The notes: generated by a model not told the origin, from the sequence alone. Positions 17,248-26,169 are shown, counted from the stretch's first letter. The stretch: DNA of 30,842 nucleotides from Bacillota bacterium (GCA_022704525.1 JAKJGF010000033.1:1-30842), one strand, 5' to 3'. A program made the numbers and translations.

Positions 17248-17610
17248 TTAGATATCAATAAAATATTCCATAAGTGTAAAATGGTTAATTAATCCAAATT
17301 GTATTTGCTTTTTTATATTTTTATCCTGAATCATTCCGTAGTGTTTTCCAATTCTATTCTTTGATATAGTTCTTATCTGGTGTATAAGAGCTATTGAGTC
17401 TACAGGTAAACCTCCTGTACCCTTTGCTAAGAAAACTTCATTTGAGTAAATTTTTCTATCTGGTTTTCTGGAAGTTATTGGAAGAACACTTATTAATGAC
17501 ATATTTTTATTATAAGCATCAGAGCTTATGATCAGGACAGGCCTTGTTCCTGCCTGTTCTGAGTTGAGAACAGGATCAAGACATGCCTGATATATATTCC
17601 ATTGTATCAT
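17248..17610 (-). CDS. mazF: MazF/PemK-family endoribonuclease toxin (type II TA)
   Basis: IYQACLDPVLNSEQAGTRPVLIISSDAYN ... VLPITS ... DSIALIHQIRTISKNRI is the classic PemK/MazF pattern; 120 aa. Its start overlaps the antitoxin stop (ATGA). Confidence 0.85.
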   Translation of the reverse strand: MIQWNIYQACLDPVLNSEQAGTRPVLIISSDAYNKNMSLISVLPITSRKPDRKIYSNEVFLAKGTGGLPVDSIALIHQIRTISKNRIGKHYGMIQDKNIKKQIQFGLINHFTLMEYFIDI

Positions 17611-17929: not shown

Positions 17930-17967
17930 AACAATTAAAACTTTGATTAATTTCAGGAGTGTATGTT

Positions 17968-19617
17968 ATGAACAATCCCATAAAACTGATAAACCGTATA
18001 AAAATACCTGCCCTCAGTCCCGCTTCTATTGCCTTCAGTCCTCTCGGTATATGGATTGCCGATATAGAAAGAGGGGAATTGTTACTTCTTAATCCACAGG
18101 ACGGAACTGTAATAGAGAAGCTTAAATCTGTAGTGAGAAGACCTCAGACCATAAGCTGGGACGGGGAATATCTCTGGGAATATGATGAGGAAACATGTAA
18201 TCTTTATAAACGACATCTTACAGGTGAAACTTCTGTCATGATTGGGCGAATTCCCGGAGTAGTGAGACCTTATCTCGGTATGACCTGTAAAGATAAGACC
18301 CTGTGGATTATATCTCCCGATCAGCCTGAGTTTACTGTAAGTAATAATCATATTTCCCTTATAAAATTCCCCCGGCATATACAGGCAGAAACCTTTGAAG
18401 CTCCTACATATTCCTGCAGAGGACTCTGTCATGACGGAAAATACCTCTGGACTCTGGATGTGGTGGAAGGAGAGATTTTTGCCCTTGACCCTGAAAAGGG
18501 TACAATTCTTACTTCTTATAAGCTTCCTGAGTGTCATGATCCTTCCAGTATAATTGTAACTGATGATAAGGTATGGACAATGGATATAAAGAAAAATGAA
18601 CTCCTTACTTTTCATTTGAATAGAGATGTTCTTTTTTCTTTTTCCGGAGGCCGCCGTTCAGAAGTGGAAATAATTTACCGCTTCAGAAATCCCGGGCCGG
18701 GAATACTTAAAGAAATGGAAACCTTCCAGAGTTTACCTAAAGATTATATTCATCAGAAACTCATAAGCCCTGTTAAGGTTAAACCTGAACCTGATGAAAA
18801 AATATCCTGTCAGTGGGATGATAAAGAAGGTACTGTCATAATAAATAAGATAAGGGATTTATTGCCAAATAAAGAATATGATGTTACGGTAAGTTTCGAT
18901 ATAGAAACTCTAAATCTTAAATATCACCTTTATCCACATAGAATGGGAACACTTGATGATATACCGGAGGAAATAAAAAAACAGTATCTTATTGATGAAA
19001 TGATAAAAAATGAGGATGAACAATTAAGAGAGGTTATCAATAAGGCAAATCTTCTTTTTCAGACAGGAGAAAAGGAAATAAGAAGTAAGGTAGAGGAAAT
19101 CCTTGAAGGTGAAAAGAGAACCTTCTGGATTGCAAGAAAACTGTATGATTTTGTTGTGGACAGTGTTAAGTATGTCCTCCCTTATACGAGTATAACCAGT
19201 AAAAAAATACTTTCCCAGGGTAAAGGAAGCTGTGGAAATCATGCCACTATTTATATAGCCCTCTGCCAGGTTGCCCGTCTTCCTGCAAGAAGTATAGTAG
19301 GTTTTTCTATCTGGAAAGATGACAGCCGTCTCGGTTATCTCGACCATGAAATACCTGAAGTTTATCTTCCTTCTTACGGATGGGTTCCTGTAGATACAAG
19401 TCGTTTTATGTCGTTACCAATCTATGGCACCCATCCCCTTACAAAATTTAGATCCTTTGGGAGTTTAAGTGATAGATTTTTTGTAAATGGTTTTGGAAGA
19501 GATCTATCCTCCCCTTTTGCAAGAAGAAGACATACTGTAGAAAAACAGATAATAGTGGAAGGGGAATGTGTGCCAGAAGAGAGATTTTTTATGAGATGGT
19601 ATTCAGGTGAGAGGTGA
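17968..19617 (+). CDS. Multidomain protein: N-terminal beta-propeller-like repeats plus C-terminal transglutaminase-like (Cys-His-Asp) cysteine peptidase domain
   Basis: The C-terminus has GKGSCGNHATIYIALCQVARLPARSIVGF ... DHEIPEVYLPSYGWVPVDTS, the TGc core. The N-terminus has repeated LW..D...GE...LDP..GT motifs (glutamine-cyclotransferase-like blades). AGGAG lies 8 nt before ATG 17968; the track's GTG at 17959 overlaps the RBS. The TGA stop is inside a GGTGAGAGGTGAGACGTGA element. Confidence 0.7.
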   Translation: MNNPIKLINRIKIPALSPASIAFSPLGIWIADIERGELLLLNPQDGTVIEKLKSVVRRPQTISWDGEYLWEYDEETCNLYKRHLTGETSVMIGRIPGVVRPYLGMTCKDKTLWIISPDQPEFTVSNNHISLIKFPRHIQAETFEAPTYSCRGLCHDGKYLWTLDVVEGEIFALDPEKGTILTSYKLPECHDPSSIIVTDDKVWTMDIKKNELLTFHLNRDVLFSFSGGRRSEVEIIYRFRNPGPGILKEMETFQSLPKDYIHQKLISPVKVKPEPDEKISCQWDDKEGTVIINKIRDLLPNKEYDVTVSFDIETLNLKYHLYPHRMGTLDDIPEEIKKQYLIDEMIKNEDEQLREVINKANLLFQTGEKEIRSKVEEILEGEKRTFWIARKLYDFVVDSVKYVLPYTSITSKKILSQGKGSCGNHATIYIALCQVARLPARSIVGFSIWKDDSRLGYLDHEIPEVYLPSYGWVPVDTSRFMSLPIYGTHPLTKFRSFGSLSDRFFVNGFGRDLSSPFARRRHTVEKQIIVEGECVPEERFFMRWYSGER

Positions 19618-19643: not shown

Positions 19644-20429
19644 CTACCTTCCACCGGTAACACCCGGAAGAGGCCCTACAACACTCGGCAGTGCGGGAAC
19701 AACAGGATTCATACCTGATGATGGCTGATACTGCGGTTGAGGTAATGATTGATTGCCCTGGGGGATAAATCCATAATCACCGAAGTAGTAGCCCGGTTGA
19801 TATCCCGGCGGGAAATAGTAGCCATAGCCGGGAGGATATCCACAACCTCCGGAATAGGAACCGCTCGAACAGATGCCGGTGGAGTAGACATTCCCTGTGT
19901 AGAGATTATTAGTATTAAGCTTGCTGGTAGTACAGGTACCGGTATTATAAGAAGAAGTCTCACTGCAGGGTATATTACCGTGAGAATCATTTGATGGCTG
20001 ATAATTAGAAACTTTATAAATTTTAAACTGACCGTCTGTTCTTATTCTTAATATTTCTTTTCCATAGAGGGGACTATAAGTATATCTTACATTCAGGGAT
20101 TTAAGAATATCAATTAATGGGAGACAGAGAATTTCTTTTCCAGAGTCATTTTTTACTGTGCCTCCATAATTTACAGGATAACCTTTTTTCTGGAAATCCA
20201 TTCCAAAATAGGTTGTAAAAAAATTGCTATCTATATATAATGTATCGTATTCCTTTACAAGTGTTATATTTTGAATAGTATTGTTATCTAAAGATAACTC
20301 CATTTTATCTGTAGATATGATATTAGAGCTGTTAAATTTTGCCAGCTGTATATCACCTGCCTGTGCCTGAAGGAGTGTAATAGCAAGAATACTTGTAATT
20401 ATTATCATTTTAATTGTTGTTTTAATCAT
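19644..20429 (-). CDS. Secreted protein with Gly/Tyr/Pro-rich low-complexity C-terminus
   Basis: The preferred start is the ATG 5 nt after GGAGGTGG (MIKTTIKMIIITSILAITLLQAQA, a signal peptide); the track start at 20444 is that RBS read as Met-Glu-Val-Val. The C-terminal 90 aa are rich in YSGGCGYPPGYGYYFPPGYQPGYYFGDYG. TAG stop. Confidence 0.6.
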   Translation of the reverse strand: MIKTTIKMIIITSILAITLLQAQAGDIQLAKFNSSNIISTDKMELSLDNNTIQNITLVKEYDTLYIDSNFFTTYFGMDFQKKGYPVNYGGTVKNDSGKEILCLPLIDILKSLNVRYTYSPLYGKEILRIRTDGQFKIYKVSNYQPSNDSHGNIPCSETSSYNTGTCTTSKLNTNNLYTGNVYSTGICSSGSYSGGCGYPPGYGYYFPPGYQPGYYFGDYGFIPQGNQSLPQPQYQPSSGMNPVVPALPSVVGPLPGVTGGR

Positions 20430-20626
20430 TTCTACCACCTCCATATTTATATTAACATAAAAACCTTAAGAAAAGCTTAAAAATATGAAAAAATGAAAAA
20501 AAATTGTGAGAGGTGAGAGGTGAAAAGTGAAAAGATTACCTGCATTATGCCTCTAATCAATGTGAGAACTTACGGTTTGCACCGCAAGCTCCGTCCCCTT
20601 GTGGGCGGGGTCATTGACTTGTTACA

Positions 20627-23600
20627 TTATCCGTTTTCTATTGTTCTTCTTGAAGGAAGAGACATATGATGCCCTATGAGGGATTGAAACCAAGCAGGGG
20701 AGAAGGAAGTTCTTCTTGAAGGACGAGGCATATGATACCCGGTGAGTCTGCTGTAAAATTCTTCCTTTGTCATTTTTATGTGTCCCCCTGAGGATTTAAA
20801 ATCTCCCTCATATACACATTCCCTTACAGGCTCATTGGTTTTACTGTCCCCAGTAGAACCTCTATCAGTATCTCCATGGGGGTTACGGAGGTAAACATAA
20901 TTATTATCAATTTTTTCTATAGAAAGTTTGTGCTCACCTTTTCTGGTAGGTTTATCCGAATCCATTCCCCAGCTTAAAGATACAGGTACATAGTAGCCAT
21001 CTGAGAGGGCTTCTTTTATTTCCTTTTCGACAAATTTATTATATCCAGGTTCATAGATATTGATGACTTTACTATCATAGGAAAGAACGGCATTGGAAGC
21101 TTTATTATAATATACATTTGCTAACCCACCGTGAACCTCTGTTTTTTCTCCTGTACCCTCTTCTATTCTGTAGAATTTATCCGTTTTATTATCATATTCC
21201 AGTGAGTTCTCTGCATATGTCATCATACTGGCCTGATAGATCCTATCTACAGGTGCCCTTCCGCTGTGATCATCCTGAAGGACTCCCTCGGGTCTTGCCA
21301 TTATATCTGCGTTGCGGAGTCTCACTTTACCTTCTTTTCCTGTGAGATCTGCTATAATTCTTACATATTCAGAAGGGTGAGTTTTTGCATTTATATATTC
21401 CAGTGTTGTTACGGTGCAGGTACCTTTATTCCCCTGATGTATTCTGTCAGGATGGGCTATGTTTTTCAATGTTTCTTCGAATATTTCAGTTCCTTCAAGA
21501 CCTTCTGCAAATTCCTGATGATGCATTTGTATCAGATTTTGAAGGAGAGTTTTATTCTGATTATCTTTATTCTGTAATTTACCTTCTTTCAGAAGTTTTA
21601 TACATTCTGCCACATTTCCGGGAATTATTTCTGAATCCATTATTTTTACTCTTCCTGCTCTGACAGTCTTTTCTGCCATATTCAGGAATTTTTCCTGCTC
21701 TTTCGGAGAGAGGAGTTGAAAAGCATTGGGAGCTTTTTCATCTTTCCCGATTTCTTCCATTATCAGTTGTCTTTTGTTAACATTTTTAGACTTACTTTCC
21801 ATATGATCTTTTATGCTTTCAGAATATATCCTCCTTATGGAAGAAAAATCCTTCAGAGCAACTGAGAGACTTCTTTTAAGAATTTCTCCTCCCTGCAGTT
21901 CTACCTCTCCTTTTTCACCGGTAAGTCCTGTCATAATTCTTGCATATTCTGAAGGATTTTTTTCTATATTCATATCTTCCAGATGGGTATAATCATTTTT
22001 TTCTCTTGATAATTCCATGAAGCCGGGTTCTGTTAAATTTTTTATAAGAGTATAGAGTACACCGGCTTTATTTAATCCTTCTGCCGGTTTTAAGTTATTC
22101 ATTTCTGTAAGGTTTTCTATGAGGGTTTTACCCTTACTGTCTCTATTGTATAGTTTATCACGTTCAAGAAGTTTCAGGATATCTCTGTATAGTCCCTTTG
22201 TATATAGGCTGTCCATAAGGTTTATAGTTCTTTCTCTGTCATCTTCTGACATATGTTCAAAATTTATCCTGGCCTTTTCATTTTCCTTAATTTTATCTCT
22301 TATGTCCTGACGCTGAAGTTCTTTTAGTTTTTCAGTCCCAAAGTGTTCTTCTATACTCTTACGGTAAATTTCACCGGTATCTACGTTAATGCTCAATTCT
22401 ATTGTTTCGCTTCTTTTAAGGATTTCGCCGTTCTGGAGGAGGACCTCTCCTTTTTCATCTGTAAGACCTGAGATAATTCTTACATATTCTGCAGAACTAT
22501 TTTTAAGGATTTTTTTCTGTAACTCAGATGGATAATCGAATCTTGAGATATTATCAGGTGTAGTTAAAGATCGTATTACCTGTGTTAATACATTTAAACC
22601 TGTAATACCGTCCTGGAATTGACTTTCAAGGGAAATAAGGTTATCCAGAAGGGTTTTACCAGTGGTATCTTTATTCTGAATTTTATCTTTTTTAAGAAGT
22701 TTTAAAAGGTTACTTCTACCACTGGAAGAATCGTAAACTTTTTCAGAGAGATTTAAAAAATCGGATCTTTCTTTTTCTGTCATATTTTCATATTTTTTCC
22801 ACAGTGCTTCATCTTTTTTAAGTCCTTCCATTATATCTTCTCTCTTAAGTTCCCGGACTTTTTCTTTTCCAAGCATCATTCTCATACTGTCACCGTAAAG
22901 AGTTGCCGGACTTACAATCTCTCCATAAAGTTCTACAACTTCATCATTTCTTTTTAATATACTTCCGTCTTTTAGTTTTACTTCTCCTTTTTCTCCTGTA
23001 AGGCCTGTTATAATTCTTATATATTCTGCAGCATTACTGGATGCAAGGTCAAATTCCATTTTATCTGTAAAATTTTTCTTATCCATAGATTCCGGTCTGG
23101 CAGTTGATCTGATTACCTCACAGATTATTATGTCTTTATTAATTCCAGGGGGAAATTTCTGGTCTTCCAGTTCAATAAGATTATCCAGAAAGTCTTTTCC
23201 CTCACTGTCTCTGTCCTGGAGGTAGAATTTCCCAAGAAGCTTTATAAGGTCTTCATCTGTCATACCGGGACGTTCATCCATGGGAGGTTTATAGAATTTT
23301 TCTGCAAGAGTCATAAATTTATCTTTTTCTTCCTGATGCATGGTACCATAGGCCGCCAGTGCTCCATTGTCTTTAAAAATCTGGTTTTTTATATCTTTTC
23401 TTATCTGTTCTCTATCAGTTTTATTCTTTGCATTTTCCTCCATAGATGCCTGGAAGATACTGCTGCAATTTATAAAGCCCTGTCCCTGAAAAGATTTATC
23501 TGAAAATTTAAGGGTCTCTCCATTCTGAAGTTTTACTTCTCCTTCTTCTGATGTAAGGCCTTTTATTATTCTTGTATATTCGGAAGGGTTATCCTTTGTA

Positions 23601-24343
23601 AGCCTGTATTCTTCGGTAAGAGAGGAGTTTTGCTCTGCCAGAAGTTTCATAAAATCAGGAGTTGAGACTTTACCAAGAATTTCTCCAAGGATGAAATCTC
23701 CCGTAATACCCTGGCGAAATTTTTGTTTACCGAAATTGTTGAGATTTTCCAGAAGTGTTTTTCCTTCAATATCTTTATTCTGTAATTTACCATCTTTCAG
23801 GAGAGTTAAAAGATATATACTGGTTCCACCTGGCATATTTTCTCCTCCCGCCATAGAACTTCCGTAACCTCCATAACCTCCCATTCCCATACCTCCCATA
23901 TTACCGAAAGGACAGTAGAATTTTTCTGCAAGTTCCATAAAGATTTTTTTCTCTTCTCCTGTCATATTTTCATAAGCAAGCCAGACTTTTTTATCTTTTT
24001 TCATCTCTTCTGTAATATCTTTAGCTTTCTGTTCCTTTGATACTTCAGGCATAGTAAAGGGCATTCCCATCATTCCTGATGGCATACCAATCTGTCCTTT
24101 TAACACTTCTTTTTCCTTCTCTTCAGGACTTTCCCTTTCAGAAAGAATACTTACAGGAGTTAAGTTCTCTCTGTCTTCTTCGTAAAGTCCTTTCATAGCT
24201 TGAAGATTTTTATTCATACCTTCTATGGCTGTTTGTCTTTTTTGTGATATGGCTGAACTTCTCACAGGAACTGTTTTATTTTTTCCCTGAAGGAGAGATG
24301 AAATACCTGTTTTATGGGCTATGGCGAATTGACTGTAATCCAT
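20627..24343 (-). CDS. Giant (1238 aa) internally repetitive protein with Gly/Met-rich N-terminal tracts and a C-terminal calpain/papain-like (clan CA) cysteine peptidase domain
   Basis: AAGGAGG RBS 5 nt upstream. There is no signal peptide. About five ~200-aa modules each end in ...NPSEYxRIIxGLTxEKGEVxLxNGExLKRS. The last module gains QGNKGTCTV (cf. calpain QGxLGDCW), then a His (KGEHKLSIE) and YLRNPHG (cf. calpain LRNPWG). Confidence 0.7.
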   Translation of the reverse strand: MDYSQFAIAHKTGISSLLQGKNKTVPVRSSAISQKRQTAIEGMNKNLQAMKGLYEEDRENLTPVSILSERESPEEKEKEVLKGQIGMPSGMMGMPFTMPEVSKEQKAKDITEEMKKDKKVWLAYENMTGEEKKIFMELAEKFYCPFGNMGGMGMGGYGGYGSSMAGGENMPGGTSIYLLTLLKDGKLQNKDIEGKTLLENLNNFGKQKFRQGITGDFILGEILGKVSTPDFMKLLAEQNSSLTEEYRLTKDNPSEYTRIIKGLTSEEGEVKLQNGETLKFSDKSFQGQGFINCSSIFQASMEENAKNKTDREQIRKDIKNQIFKDNGALAAYGTMHQEEKDKFMTLAEKFYKPPMDERPGMTDEDLIKLLGKFYLQDRDSEGKDFLDNLIELEDQKFPPGINKDIIICEVIRSTARPESMDKKNFTDKMEFDLASSNAAEYIRIITGLTGEKGEVKLKDGSILKRNDEVVELYGEIVSPATLYGDSMRMMLGKEKVRELKREDIMEGLKKDEALWKKYENMTEKERSDFLNLSEKVYDSSSGRSNLLKLLKKDKIQNKDTTGKTLLDNLISLESQFQDGITGLNVLTQVIRSLTTPDNISRFDYPSELQKKILKNSSAEYVRIISGLTDEKGEVLLQNGEILKRSETIELSINVDTGEIYRKSIEEHFGTEKLKELQRQDIRDKIKENEKARINFEHMSEDDRERTINLMDSLYTKGLYRDILKLLERDKLYNRDSKGKTLIENLTEMNNLKPAEGLNKAGVLYTLIKNLTEPGFMELSREKNDYTHLEDMNIEKNPSEYARIMTGLTGEKGEVELQGGEILKRSLSVALKDFSSIRRIYSESIKDHMESKSKNVNKRQLIMEEIGKDEKAPNAFQLLSPKEQEKFLNMAEKTVRAGRVKIMDSEIIPGNVAECIKLLKEGKLQNKDNQNKTLLQNLIQMHHQEFAEGLEGTEIFEETLKNIAHPDRIHQGNKGTCTVTTLEYINAKTHPSEYVRIIADLTGKEGKVRLRNADIMARPEGVLQDDHSGRAPVDRIYQASMMTYAENSLEYDNKTDKFYRIEEGTGEKTEVHGGLANVYYNKASNAVLSYDSKVINIYEPGYNKFVEKEIKEALSDGYYVPVSLSWGMDSDKPTRKGEHKLSIEKIDNNYVYLRNPHGDTDRGSTGDSKTNEPVRECVYEGDFKSSGGHIKMTKEEFYSRLTGYHMPRPSRRTSFSPAWFQSLIGHHMSLPSRRTIENG

Positions 24344-24387
24344 GGATAAGCCTCCTTGAACCTTTATGCTTCACGGTTGACGTGTGA

Positions 24388-24439
24388 CAGGTAATATATT
24401 TCTTTATATTAATCAGGTAATATATTTCTTTATATTAAT
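24388..24439. repeat. Perfect 26-bp tandem direct repeat (CAGGTAATATATTTCTTTATATTAAT x2) in the promoter region of the giant gene, with a third partial copy at about 24469-24483
   Basis: It was read directly. The copies lie 45-96 bp upstream of the ATG at 24343, and each carries TATATT / TATAAAG -10-like hexamers on the minus strand. Confidence 0.6.
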
Positions 24440-24520: not shown

Positions 24521-24551
24521 AATAAAAAAACCCGTCGGAAAAATCCGACGG
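24521..24551 (-). terminator. Rho-independent terminator of the lipoprotein gene (also a hairpin for plus-strand read-through)
   Basis: Stem CCGTCGGA / TCCGACGG (8 bp) with loop AAAA. On the minus strand it is followed by GTTTTTTTATTT; on the plus strand by ATTTTAAGG. Confidence 0.7.
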
Positions 24552-24568
24552 ATTTTAAGGGTTGATTT

Positions 24569-25124: not shown

Positions 25125-25235
25125 GTGAGACGTGCGACGTGAGACGATAGATACATTTACTTTTCTTTTCACTTTTCATTTCTGCTCACTGCTCACTGCT
25201 CACTGCTCACTGCTCACTTCTTTTCACTTTTTACT
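25125..25235. repeat. Opposed heptamer arms: GTGAGAC-GTGCGAC-GTGAGAC, 14-nt spacer, (TTTCACT-like)x3 (TGCTCAC)x5 (TTTCACT-like)x2
   Basis: Left arm about 25125-25146. Right arm about 25161-25235 with five perfect TGCTCAC units at 25183-25217. The TAG stop of the 25234..26127 gene abuts the right arm. Confidence 0.7.
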
Positions 25236-26127
25236 ACTTAGTCCAGTAATTGTTCGGATTGTTAGGATAAACCGGCGTTGGCGTTACTATATCTGTATAT
25301 AGTATCTGCTGAGTAACACTTTCTATACCCTTATCTAAAACTATACCGGCATTCTCACCATTTTTGAGTAATATTCTCTGTGAGTATGTAGTTGTATAAT
25401 TTTGAACAGTATAGTAATATTTCTTGTTAGTTACGTCATATAGCAAATCACCCTGAATTTTACGGTAAATTGTAGCTGTTATTGTATAATCACCCTTCTG
25501 AAGTCCCGTGAAGTTGAATGTACCATCCTGAGGAAGAGGGGTTGTCGCAACGGCCCTTTTTGTGGGGATACGGGCAGTATTTATATAGTCTTCAGTAAGT
25601 GTAATAGAACCCTCATCAAAAGGTTTGTAGATTGTAACTTTTCCGGAAATTGAACCTGAAGAAGAAGATGTGTCCTGAGCTACTGTACCGGTTACTGTAA
25701 CTCTGGGCTGATTGTTTTGAGTTGAAGTATTATATTTTATGCCCAGAAAATTCAGGGTATCAGTAACGTTCAGATAATAGATCTCCTGTCCTCTGGATCT
25801 GTCAGGCCCTGTGGCAAGAAGTGATAGAGGTGCATCCTGACCATTCAGGGTAAACTTTGAGGGAAGGTTCTGGAAATTTGCTGTAAGACCCAGCATATTT
25901 ACATAATCTGTTGCAGGAGCATACATATTATTATTCTGATATATAATTGCTTTTGGGAAGGTACTGTTATATATCACCAGAGGATGGGAAGAAGGGTCGA
26001 TAAAATATCCAGATAGCTTAATGAAATCAGATCTGGCTTCTATTAAAGGTGTAAAGATACATAGAAGAAGAATTAAAAAAAGGCTTGTAATAGAGATTTT
26101 TGAGGAATTATGGTGTTTTAATTTCAT
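25234..26127 (-). CDS. Secreted protein with carboxypeptidase-regulatory-like / transthyretin-fold beta-sandwich domain
   Basis: Preferred start ATG 26127 is preceded by GGGAG 8 nt upstream (the track GTG at 26136 lies inside the RBS). Signal peptide ...LFLILLLCIFTPLIEA. Thr/Ser/Asn-rich. GKVTIYKPFDEGSITL...DGTFNFTGLQKGDYTITA resembles CarbopepD_reg domains. Confidence 0.5.
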   Translation of the reverse strand: MKLKHHNSSKISITSLFLILLLCIFTPLIEARSDFIKLSGYFIDPSSHPLVIYNSTFPKAIIYQNNNMYAPATDYVNMLGLTANFQNLPSKFTLNGQDAPLSLLATGPDRSRGQEIYYLNVTDTLNFLGIKYNTSTQNNQPRVTVTGTVAQDTSSSSGSISGKVTIYKPFDEGSITLTEDYINTARIPTKRAVATTPLPQDGTFNFTGLQKGDYTITATIYRKIQGDLLYDVTNKKYYYTVQNYTTTYSQRILLKNGENAGIVLDKGIESVTQQILYTDIVTPTPVYPNNPNNYWTK

Positions 26128-26169
26128 TTTCTTCACTCCCTTTTTTGATATTATTATTTACAGATTTAT

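Follow-up and report, generated by a model that had tools for sequence, protein, structure and literature searches.

Calpain homologues are defined by the Peptidase_C2 domain in the survey by Rawlings (2015; PMC4631099), which describes bacterial relatives as rare and as mostly missing the core Ca2+ sites and mentions relatives without catalytic residues; homologues that are not peptidases are usually assumed to bind proteins. Known pseudo-calpains keep the whole two-lobe domain, in which residues have been substituted. We describe here a protein of different design, encoded by an open reading frame (ORF) of 1238 codons in a stretch of 30,842 nucleotides of a Bacillota bacterium assembly (GCA_022704525.1, JAKJGF010000033.1:1-30842), hereafter called the window. 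In this protein the first lobe alone is duplicated, in four tandem copies lying on the same chain as an intact enzyme. It is a large soluble protein without export signal, which combines a calpain-like catalytic apparatus with four Cys-less paralogues of its N-lobe. The likeliest reading is that it works as a cysteine endopeptidase in the cytoplasm, with the pseudo-lobes serving as binding or regulatory modules. No published description of a tandem duplication of the Cys-bearing lobe alone, fused to an active-type enzyme, was found.

The catalytic domain

Over the C-terminal ~350 residues, a cysteine peptidase domain of the papain-like (clan CA) type with two lobes is predicted. A preliminary description, made from the sequence alone, had placed a candidate catalytic Cys in the last of five modules only, followed by a His (KGEHKLSIE) and an Asn turn (YLRNPHG), and all three were found as described: module 5 is the only one to carry QGNKGTC, with Gln970 and Cys976. 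Conservation of Cys, His and Asn in homologues had been set beforehand as a check. Among 143 full-domain representatives of the family, pairwise at most 50% identical, Cys and His are each present in 143 and Asn in 137, with Asp in four more, while the Gln six residues ahead of Cys is kept in 141. In the turn after Asn, Pro is found in 139 representatives, the next position is Trp (104), His (17) or Gln (13), and Gly follows in 136. Gln, Cys, His and Asn are invariant in the four closest homologues.

Modeling of residues 860-1238 with AlphaFold2 gave a predicted local distance difference test score (pLDDT) of 45.5 with 4 input sequences and of 90.4 with 67 family sequences, the latter with a predicted template modeling score (pTM) of 0.88 and a two-lobe alpha+beta papain fold. 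Calpain protease cores are the closest solved structures to this model by two methods, and they make up 27 of the 28 Foldseek matches at E <= 1e-3, so that the papain-fold match anticipated for the C-terminal domain was indeed recovered. According to DSSP, Cys976 (model 117) opens the helix of model residues 117-129, His1138 (model His279) lies inside strand 276-286 and Asn1154 (model Asn295) directly follows strand 290-294, a placement on secondary structure that agrees with papain-like enzymes. The model thus appears to hold a complete catalytic set: Gln970, Cys976 at the N-terminus of a helix, the general base His1138 within a strand, and an N-P-(W/H)-G turn that contains Asn1154.

Profile matches to PDB sequences were sub-threshold and belonged almost exclusively to clan CA peptidases (streptopain, calpains). 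In one of them the invariant His of the family is aligned with His195 of streptopain. In the alignment to calpain-8 (E 0.28), the H-A-Y-S, RNPWG and DGEFWMS..DF segments of the calpain are collinear with the H, LRNPWG and GGHIxM..eF of the family. Set beside the calpain signature of QGxxGDCW, GHAYS, RNPWG and DGEFWM..DF, the family consensus reads QGxxGTC, H, LRNPWG and GxxxM..F, with the limits that the calpain-8 alignment is sub-threshold and that the window protein itself has NPHG. Weak Pfam matches of 67 family members all fell in clan CA, namely Peptidase_C39_2 (8/67), DUF3335 (6) and C70, C10 and BtrH_N (2 each). Sub-threshold matches of the whole protein to OmdA and to phage-integrase SAM domains were helical and were rejected. 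A trimmed family alignment run as a profile against PDB sequences matched DesD at chance level only, no segment reaching the threshold, and was likewise set aside.

Cys-less copies of the first lobe

The ~200-residue modules with shared motifs that had been noticed earlier, five in number, are confirmed. Each is about 180-200 residues long, the fifth running from residue 860 onward, and they are 32-45% identical to one another at the protein level. A profile (A1) was built from catalytic C-terminal regions only, those of the window protein and three homologues. Modules 1-4 matched it with 76-95 bits, and the matches were confined to profile positions 1 to ~185. In each module a helical pre-segment (model residues 1-38) is joined by a linker of low model confidence (39-51) to a helical N-lobe that extends to the DRIYQASMM helix (52-188); in module 1 the linker is enlarged to a Gly/Met/Tyr tract. 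For the His/Asn lobe there is neither a match nor room in modules 1-4.

The proposal that the upstream modules are duplicated Cys-less copies of the N-lobe was confirmed by a profile comparison. A profile of 13 pseudo-modules (A4), aligned by hhalign with one of the 67-member family (A2), matched with a probability of 100% and an E-value of 1.6e-45, far beyond chance, over 179 columns corresponding to residues 861-1047. The homology extends to the N-terminal half of the catalytic domain only, whose Gln and Cys the upstream modules lack. In every genuine upstream module, in this protein as in several subfamilies, the QGxKGTCTVTT segment is replaced by unrelated and often Gly/Met-rich sequence. 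Since the Gln/Cys loop is lost and the His/Asn lobe is absent, modules 1-4 cannot catalyse alone. Partial modules that still hold the Cys are split or truncated catalytic domains and were not counted as pseudo-modules.

Other motifs are kept in the pseudo-modules, if anything better than in catalytic lobes: LLKxGKLxxKDxxGKTLLDNL, NPSEYxRIIxGLTGEKGEVxLxNGExLKR and IYQxS. By visual impression only, LLxxGxLxxKDxxGKTLL is reminiscent of ankyrin or EF-hand motifs. Across proteins, the pseudo-modules are 35-60% identical with one another, and the catalytic N-lobes form a separate group at 49-66%. Because pseudo-modules of different proteins group together and are closer to each other than to the catalytic lobes, the pseudo-lobe is old and under selective maintenance rather than a recent duplicate or a product of decay, an accessory domain of variable copy number. 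Among the 150 best representatives, 125 have no upstream pseudo-module, 13 have one, 3 have two, 1 has three and 1, the window protein only, has four. A relative of 958 residues (P0008, L012 8001-10877) carries a Cys-less pseudo-module C-terminal to its catalytic domain and ~400 residues of unmatched N-terminal sequence. A word-indexed protein search with the pseudo-module alignment returned no matches.

The protein is acidic and rich in Lys and Glu. The absence of a signal peptide, already noted in the preliminary description, is upheld by the low hydrophobicity of the N-terminus, where the best 15-residue stretch scores 0.62, and no transmembrane helix was found, the maximum 19-residue Kyte-Doolittle score over the whole protein being 0.9. 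Low-complexity Gly/Met-rich tracts had also been announced in the N-terminal part, and two are present (Table 1), the second of them inside pseudo-module 1. Tracts of this kind recur in ~9 of the 152 sequences examined, whereas shuffled controls gave 1. Two residues ahead of the C-terminal tail a short stretch begins that is duplicated within the protein, HMPRPSRRTS / HMSLPSRRTI.

Comparison with calpains and other clan CA peptidases

By two methods, no structure matches the domain better than the calpain core (CysPc, PC1+PC2; MEROPS C2). Both domains have two lobes, the first bearing Gln and Cys and the second His and Asn, and a signal peptide is lacking in calpain and in the window protein alike. 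In the sub-threshold alignment the RNPWG turn and, further downstream, GxxxM..F are collinear in the family and in calpain-8. The distance between Cys and His is 162 residues in the window protein and ~157 in calpain. Between His and Asn there are 16 residues, a papain-like spacing, compared with 24 in calpain. Structure-based sequence identity amounts to 11-14%, and the C2L/CBSW and EF-hand domains of calpains are missing. Pfam Peptidase_C2 does not match the window protein (E <= 10) or any of 67 family members (E <= 1), and calpain sequences of the PDB match the family profile at E 0.28-1.3 only. The calpain likeness claimed earlier holds for the motifs, although the collinear alignment with calpain-8 reaches E 0.28 only; it does not extend to membership of family C2, whose defining sequence test the domain fails. 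It is a clan CA Cys-His-Asn member of an unclassified family, structurally nearest to calpain cores and outside C2 by sequence.

The other candidates in clan CA fit less well. Matches of relatives to C39-like, DUF3335, C70 and C10 models cover the His/Asn lobe only and are mostly below gathering scores. The window domain is about twice as large as C39, and neither an ABC-transporter fusion or neighbour nor a double-glycine-leader context was seen. Peptidase_C39 and C39_2 gave no match for the window protein and weak partial matches in 8/67 relatives only; assignment to a C39-type peptidase was rejected on the absence of a match in the window protein and of an ABC-transporter domain or neighbour.

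Modules 1-4 resemble the pseudo-proteases of clan CA, such as calpamodulin (CAPN6) and the calpain-related proteins of kinetoplastids, in being derived from a protease, in having lost the nucleophile and in being conserved. Pseudo-proteases as such are well known, and as a rule they retain the entire domain. Tandem PC1-like lobes alone are not among the architectures given in the parts of the survey used here (Rawlings, 2015; PMC4631099). Literature joining calpain with Eremiobacterota was searched for and none was found.

The protein family

When 1.84 billion cluster representatives (50% identity clusters) were searched exhaustively with HMMER, 1390 matched with E <= 1e-3; of these, 914 reached E <= 1e-10 and 224 reached E <= 1e-30. 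The majority are proteins of 400-500 residues with a single domain copy. Few members are named by organism, and nearly all of these come from assemblies of Eremiobacterota/Vulcanimicrobiota. A word-indexed protein search with the full protein gave 4 homologues, among them 3 distinct ones, all from Eremiobacterota, and the same kind of search with the family alignment gave 17. No model of Pfam or NCBIfam covers the family. A locus search with profile A1 recovered 3 genome and 6 metagenome loci, with no new architecture among them.

Annexin repeats are fused to the protease domain in four long relatives of 1214-1790 residues (P0029, P0051, P0063 and P0076), three of which have five repeats, while P0076, annotated as Vulcanimicrobiota, has one. 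In P0029 a C-terminal DnaJ domain is found besides the annexin repeats. Elsewhere among bacteria, annexin repeats are found together with domains of toxins and metalloproteases (PMC3894181).

Possible function and alternative readings

The protein is predicted to be a cysteine endopeptidase that would act in the cytoplasm of its producer. The pseudo-lobes, which retain the scaffold and the especially conserved NPSEYxRIIxGLTGEKGEVxLxNGExLKR hairpin, would most likely be multivalent binding or regulatory modules that gather substrates or partners at the one active site, and the Gly/Met-rich linkers probably lend flexibility or promote self-association. The cytoplasmic location is deduced solely from the absence of export signals. 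It is in line with the absence of a hydrophobic N-terminal signal in all of the 143 members, with the DnaJ fusion of one member and with neighbourhoods of housekeeping type. Several points weigh on the other side. Whole-protein searches of Pfam, NCBIfam and PDB sequences returned nothing significant, and in its turn (NPHG) the window protein carries His, where the family usually has Trp. One family member contains a LysM domain and four long members contain annexin repeats. Moreover, export via a type III, IV, VI or VII-like route is compatible with a missing Sec signal.

This last point leads to the alternative that survives best, that of a translocated effector or toxin. The protease would then work inside a eukaryotic host, a prey or a competitor bacterium after Sec-independent export, the modules aiding delivery or target binding; we regard this as unlikely. 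The catalytic domain is C-terminal, as in polymorphic toxins, and many members have disordered, low-complexity N-termini, but the N-terminal part holds no Pfam trafficking domain. No secretion-system, trafficking-domain or immunity-gene signature was detected in the window or in the homologous loci examined, where the neighbours are housekeeping-like, and no conserved gene follows immediately downstream. The Sec signal is missing, yet the family is large and diverse, with its 1390 clusters at 50% identity and at least two paralogues in one metagenome-assembled genome (MAG; P0001 and P0002, locus tags PL110_20245 and PL110_13685). Annexin fusions, found in some members, cut both ways on this question, since annexins of bacteria often come with toxin domains (PMC3894181). 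The J-domain fusion of one member points to the cytosol. A role in a defence system was rejected as well, given that PADLOC defence-system models had no matches to the protein or to its neighbours.

A papain-fold domain might also be something other than an endopeptidase, i.e., an isopeptidase or deconjugase, an amidase, or a transpeptidase or acyltransferase of the phytochelatin-synthase or transglutaminase kind. The third catalytic residue of transglutaminases and phytochelatin synthases is Asp, whereas it is Asn in 137 of the 143 family representatives. The arrangement Gln-x5-Cys...His...Asn-Pro-Trp-Gly is furthermore the established signature of C1/C2 endopeptidases (Rawlings, 2015; PMC4631099), which makes any of these other activities rather improbable.

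That the ORF is an artefact, either a repeat-built assembly chimera or a decaying pseudogene with dead protease remnants, is effectively excluded: although the source is metagenome-assembled and repeat proteins are easily misassembled, the array is not an assembly artefact because its modules are just 32-45% identical in protein, which leaves no long DNA repeats to collapse, the 3.7-kb frame is uninterrupted over its 1238 codons, an independently deposited NCBI record (P0001, from a Candidatus Eremiobacteraeota MAG and annotated there as hypothetical and partial) is 100% identical across the first 790 residues, homologues of other samples share the pseudo-module plus catalytic architecture with 1-3 pseudo-modules, and specific motifs are conserved among the pseudo-modules of different proteins.

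A broader proposal goes beyond the cytoplasmic endopeptidase favoured here and is at present very speculative. The family could be a deep bacterial sister lineage of calpains and a cytoplasmic system of regulated proteolysis of Vulcanimicrobiota, with Cys-less PC1-like lobes partnering a single His/Asn lobe. If this were true, the inactive lobes could compete or exchange with the catalytic lobe and form a built-in on/off switch, an exaggeration of the lobe misalignment that controls eukaryotic calpains; alternatively, the lobes might constitute a multivalent scaffold that forms condensates via the Gly/Met tracts. In the relatives fused to annexin and J-domains there is a hint of a connection with Ca2+, with membranes and with chaperones.

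Independently of this proposal, these calpain-like cysteine peptidases make up a large family (1390 clusters, 914 of them at E <= 1e-10) that is left unmodelled by Pfam and NCBIfam, and so large and divergent a calpain-like group bears on the origin of the eukaryotic calpain core. Pseudo-enzyme modules have arisen here in an unusual way, by tandem duplication of just one of the two lobes of a protease, with the copies kept beside the intact enzyme, and the array offers a tractable case for studying the function of a "half protease". The alignment and the conserved Gln, Cys, His and Asn positions permit the annotation of these "hypothetical proteins".

Gene, upstream signals and genomic context

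The features of the ORF, together with the neighbouring genes discussed below, are collected in Table 1.

Table 1. Features of the protease gene and neighbouring genes in the window; limits of the modules are approximate.
Feature	Position	Strand	Remarks
Complete ORF	20627..24343	-	ATG start, stop codon included; 1238 residues, ~141 kDa, isoelectric point ~5.8
N-terminal region, residues 1-104	24032..24343	-	No family match; holds Gly/Met tract 1
Gly/Met tract 1, residues 86-99	24047-24088	-	GMPSGMMGMPFTMP
Pseudo-module 1, residues 105-310	23414..24031	-	Helical pre-segment, linker and Cys-less N-lobe copy; 94.5 bits, profile positions 2-184
Gly/Met/Tyr-rich linker (tract 2), residues 147-173	23825-23905	-	GNMGGMGMGGYGGYGSSMAGGENMPGG; inside pseudo-module 1
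Pseudo-module 2, residues 311-500	22844..23413	-	91.6 bits, profile positions 1-159
Pseudo-module 3, residues 501-670	22334..22843	-	75.9 bits, profile positions 2-156
Pseudo-module 4, residues 671-859	21767..22333	-	84.4 bits, profile positions 16-189
Catalytic module, helical pre-segment and N (L) lobe, residues 860-1047	21203..21766	-	
Predicted oxyanion Gln970	21434-21436	-	Within catalytic N (L) lobe
Predicted nucleophile Cys976	21416-21418	-	Within catalytic N (L) lobe
Catalytic module, beta-rich C (R) lobe, residues 1048-1207	20723..21202	-	Contains SGGHIKMTKEEFYSRL motif
Predicted catalytic His1138	20930-20932	-	Within C (R) lobe, KGEHKLSIE
Predicted catalytic Asn1154	20882-20884	-	Within C (R) lobe, YLRNPHG
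C-terminal tail, residues 1208-1238	20630..20722	-	Low confidence (pLDDT below 50); not conserved among homologues
Short internal duplication, residues ~1206-1235	~20639-20728		HMPRPSRRTS / HMSLPSRRTI
Shine-Dalgarno sequence	24351..24357	-	AAGGAGG, 7 nucleotides 5' of ATG
Exact 26-bp tandem direct repeat	24388..24439	-	ATTAATATAAAGAAATATATTACCTG x2; leader/operator region; 2.0 copies, 100% identity
Sigma-70-like site	24483-24455		Promoter scan
Sigma-70-like site	24508-24480		Promoter scan
Intrinsic-terminator-like hairpin	24527..24556	-	Ends upstream LTXXQ-family gene; 13-pair stem, then T run
300-residue secreted protein	25234..26136	-	Upstream
266-residue signal-peptide protein	19644..20444	-	Adjacent downstream; Gly/Tyr/Pro-rich tail
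552-residue transglutaminase-core protein	17959..19617	+	Two genes from protease
MazF/PemK-type toxin	17248..17610	-	
826-residue protein	10134..12614	+	Pfam MVP_shoulder (E 1.7e-29), Vault_3 and Band_7 matches
Large WD40-repeat protein	977..2566	-	

The AAGGAGG ribosome-binding site and the exact 26-bp tandem repeat upstream of the ORF are both present as had been reported, and the label of "duplicated promoter element" given to the repeat is an interpretation. The repeat is placed between the ribosome-binding site and two sigma-70-like sites identified by a promoter scan, downstream of both of them. It has no other occurrence within the window, where 0 matches were expected by chance, and was not found at 10 homologous loci; it might act as an operator or stem from a recent duplication by slippage. 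Because a strong terminator-like hairpin closes the upstream LTXXQ gene, the ORF is probably transcribed from its own promoter.

The window is ordinary chromosomal DNA that encodes LepA, a HemN-like radical SAM enzyme, a beta-eliminating lyase and a two-component system, as well as a MazF toxin, a protein with WD40 repeats and one resembling the major vault protein. The G+C content of the ORF (36.2%) is close to that of the window (35.7%). Neither Rfam families nor tRNAs were detected anywhere in the window.

A conserved operon was rejected, as neighbourhoods vary between homologues and show only a loose recurrence of secreted Tyr-rich proteins and of a transglutaminase-like gene. No terminator is predicted between the protease gene and the downstream gene for the 266-residue protein. 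A homologue of the latter (38% identity, E 1e-29; L001 5477-6049, minus strand) adjoins the protease P0003 in divergent orientation, and the two genes could be a linked pair or residual synteny. The upstream 300-residue secreted protein has homologues at L011 32-865 and L015 1-642, both on the minus strand; one homologue sits ~2.5 kb upstream of the paralogous protease P0002 and ends in Tyr/Thr/Pro repeats of the YTPYNTP type. Similarly, a homologue of the transglutaminase-core protein (L012 1695-3221, plus strand) lies ~5 kb from the related protease P0008. These three loose recurrences may reflect shared ancestry rather than function.

The MazF/PemK-type toxin and the large WD40-repeat protein of the window, along with the kelch, Ser/Thr-kinase, TPR and ankyrin genes seen at homologous loci, suggest a genome in which repeat proteins and signalling proteins of eukaryote-like kinds are abundant. 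The 826-residue protein is a bacterial relative of the major vault protein, a component typical of eukaryotes.

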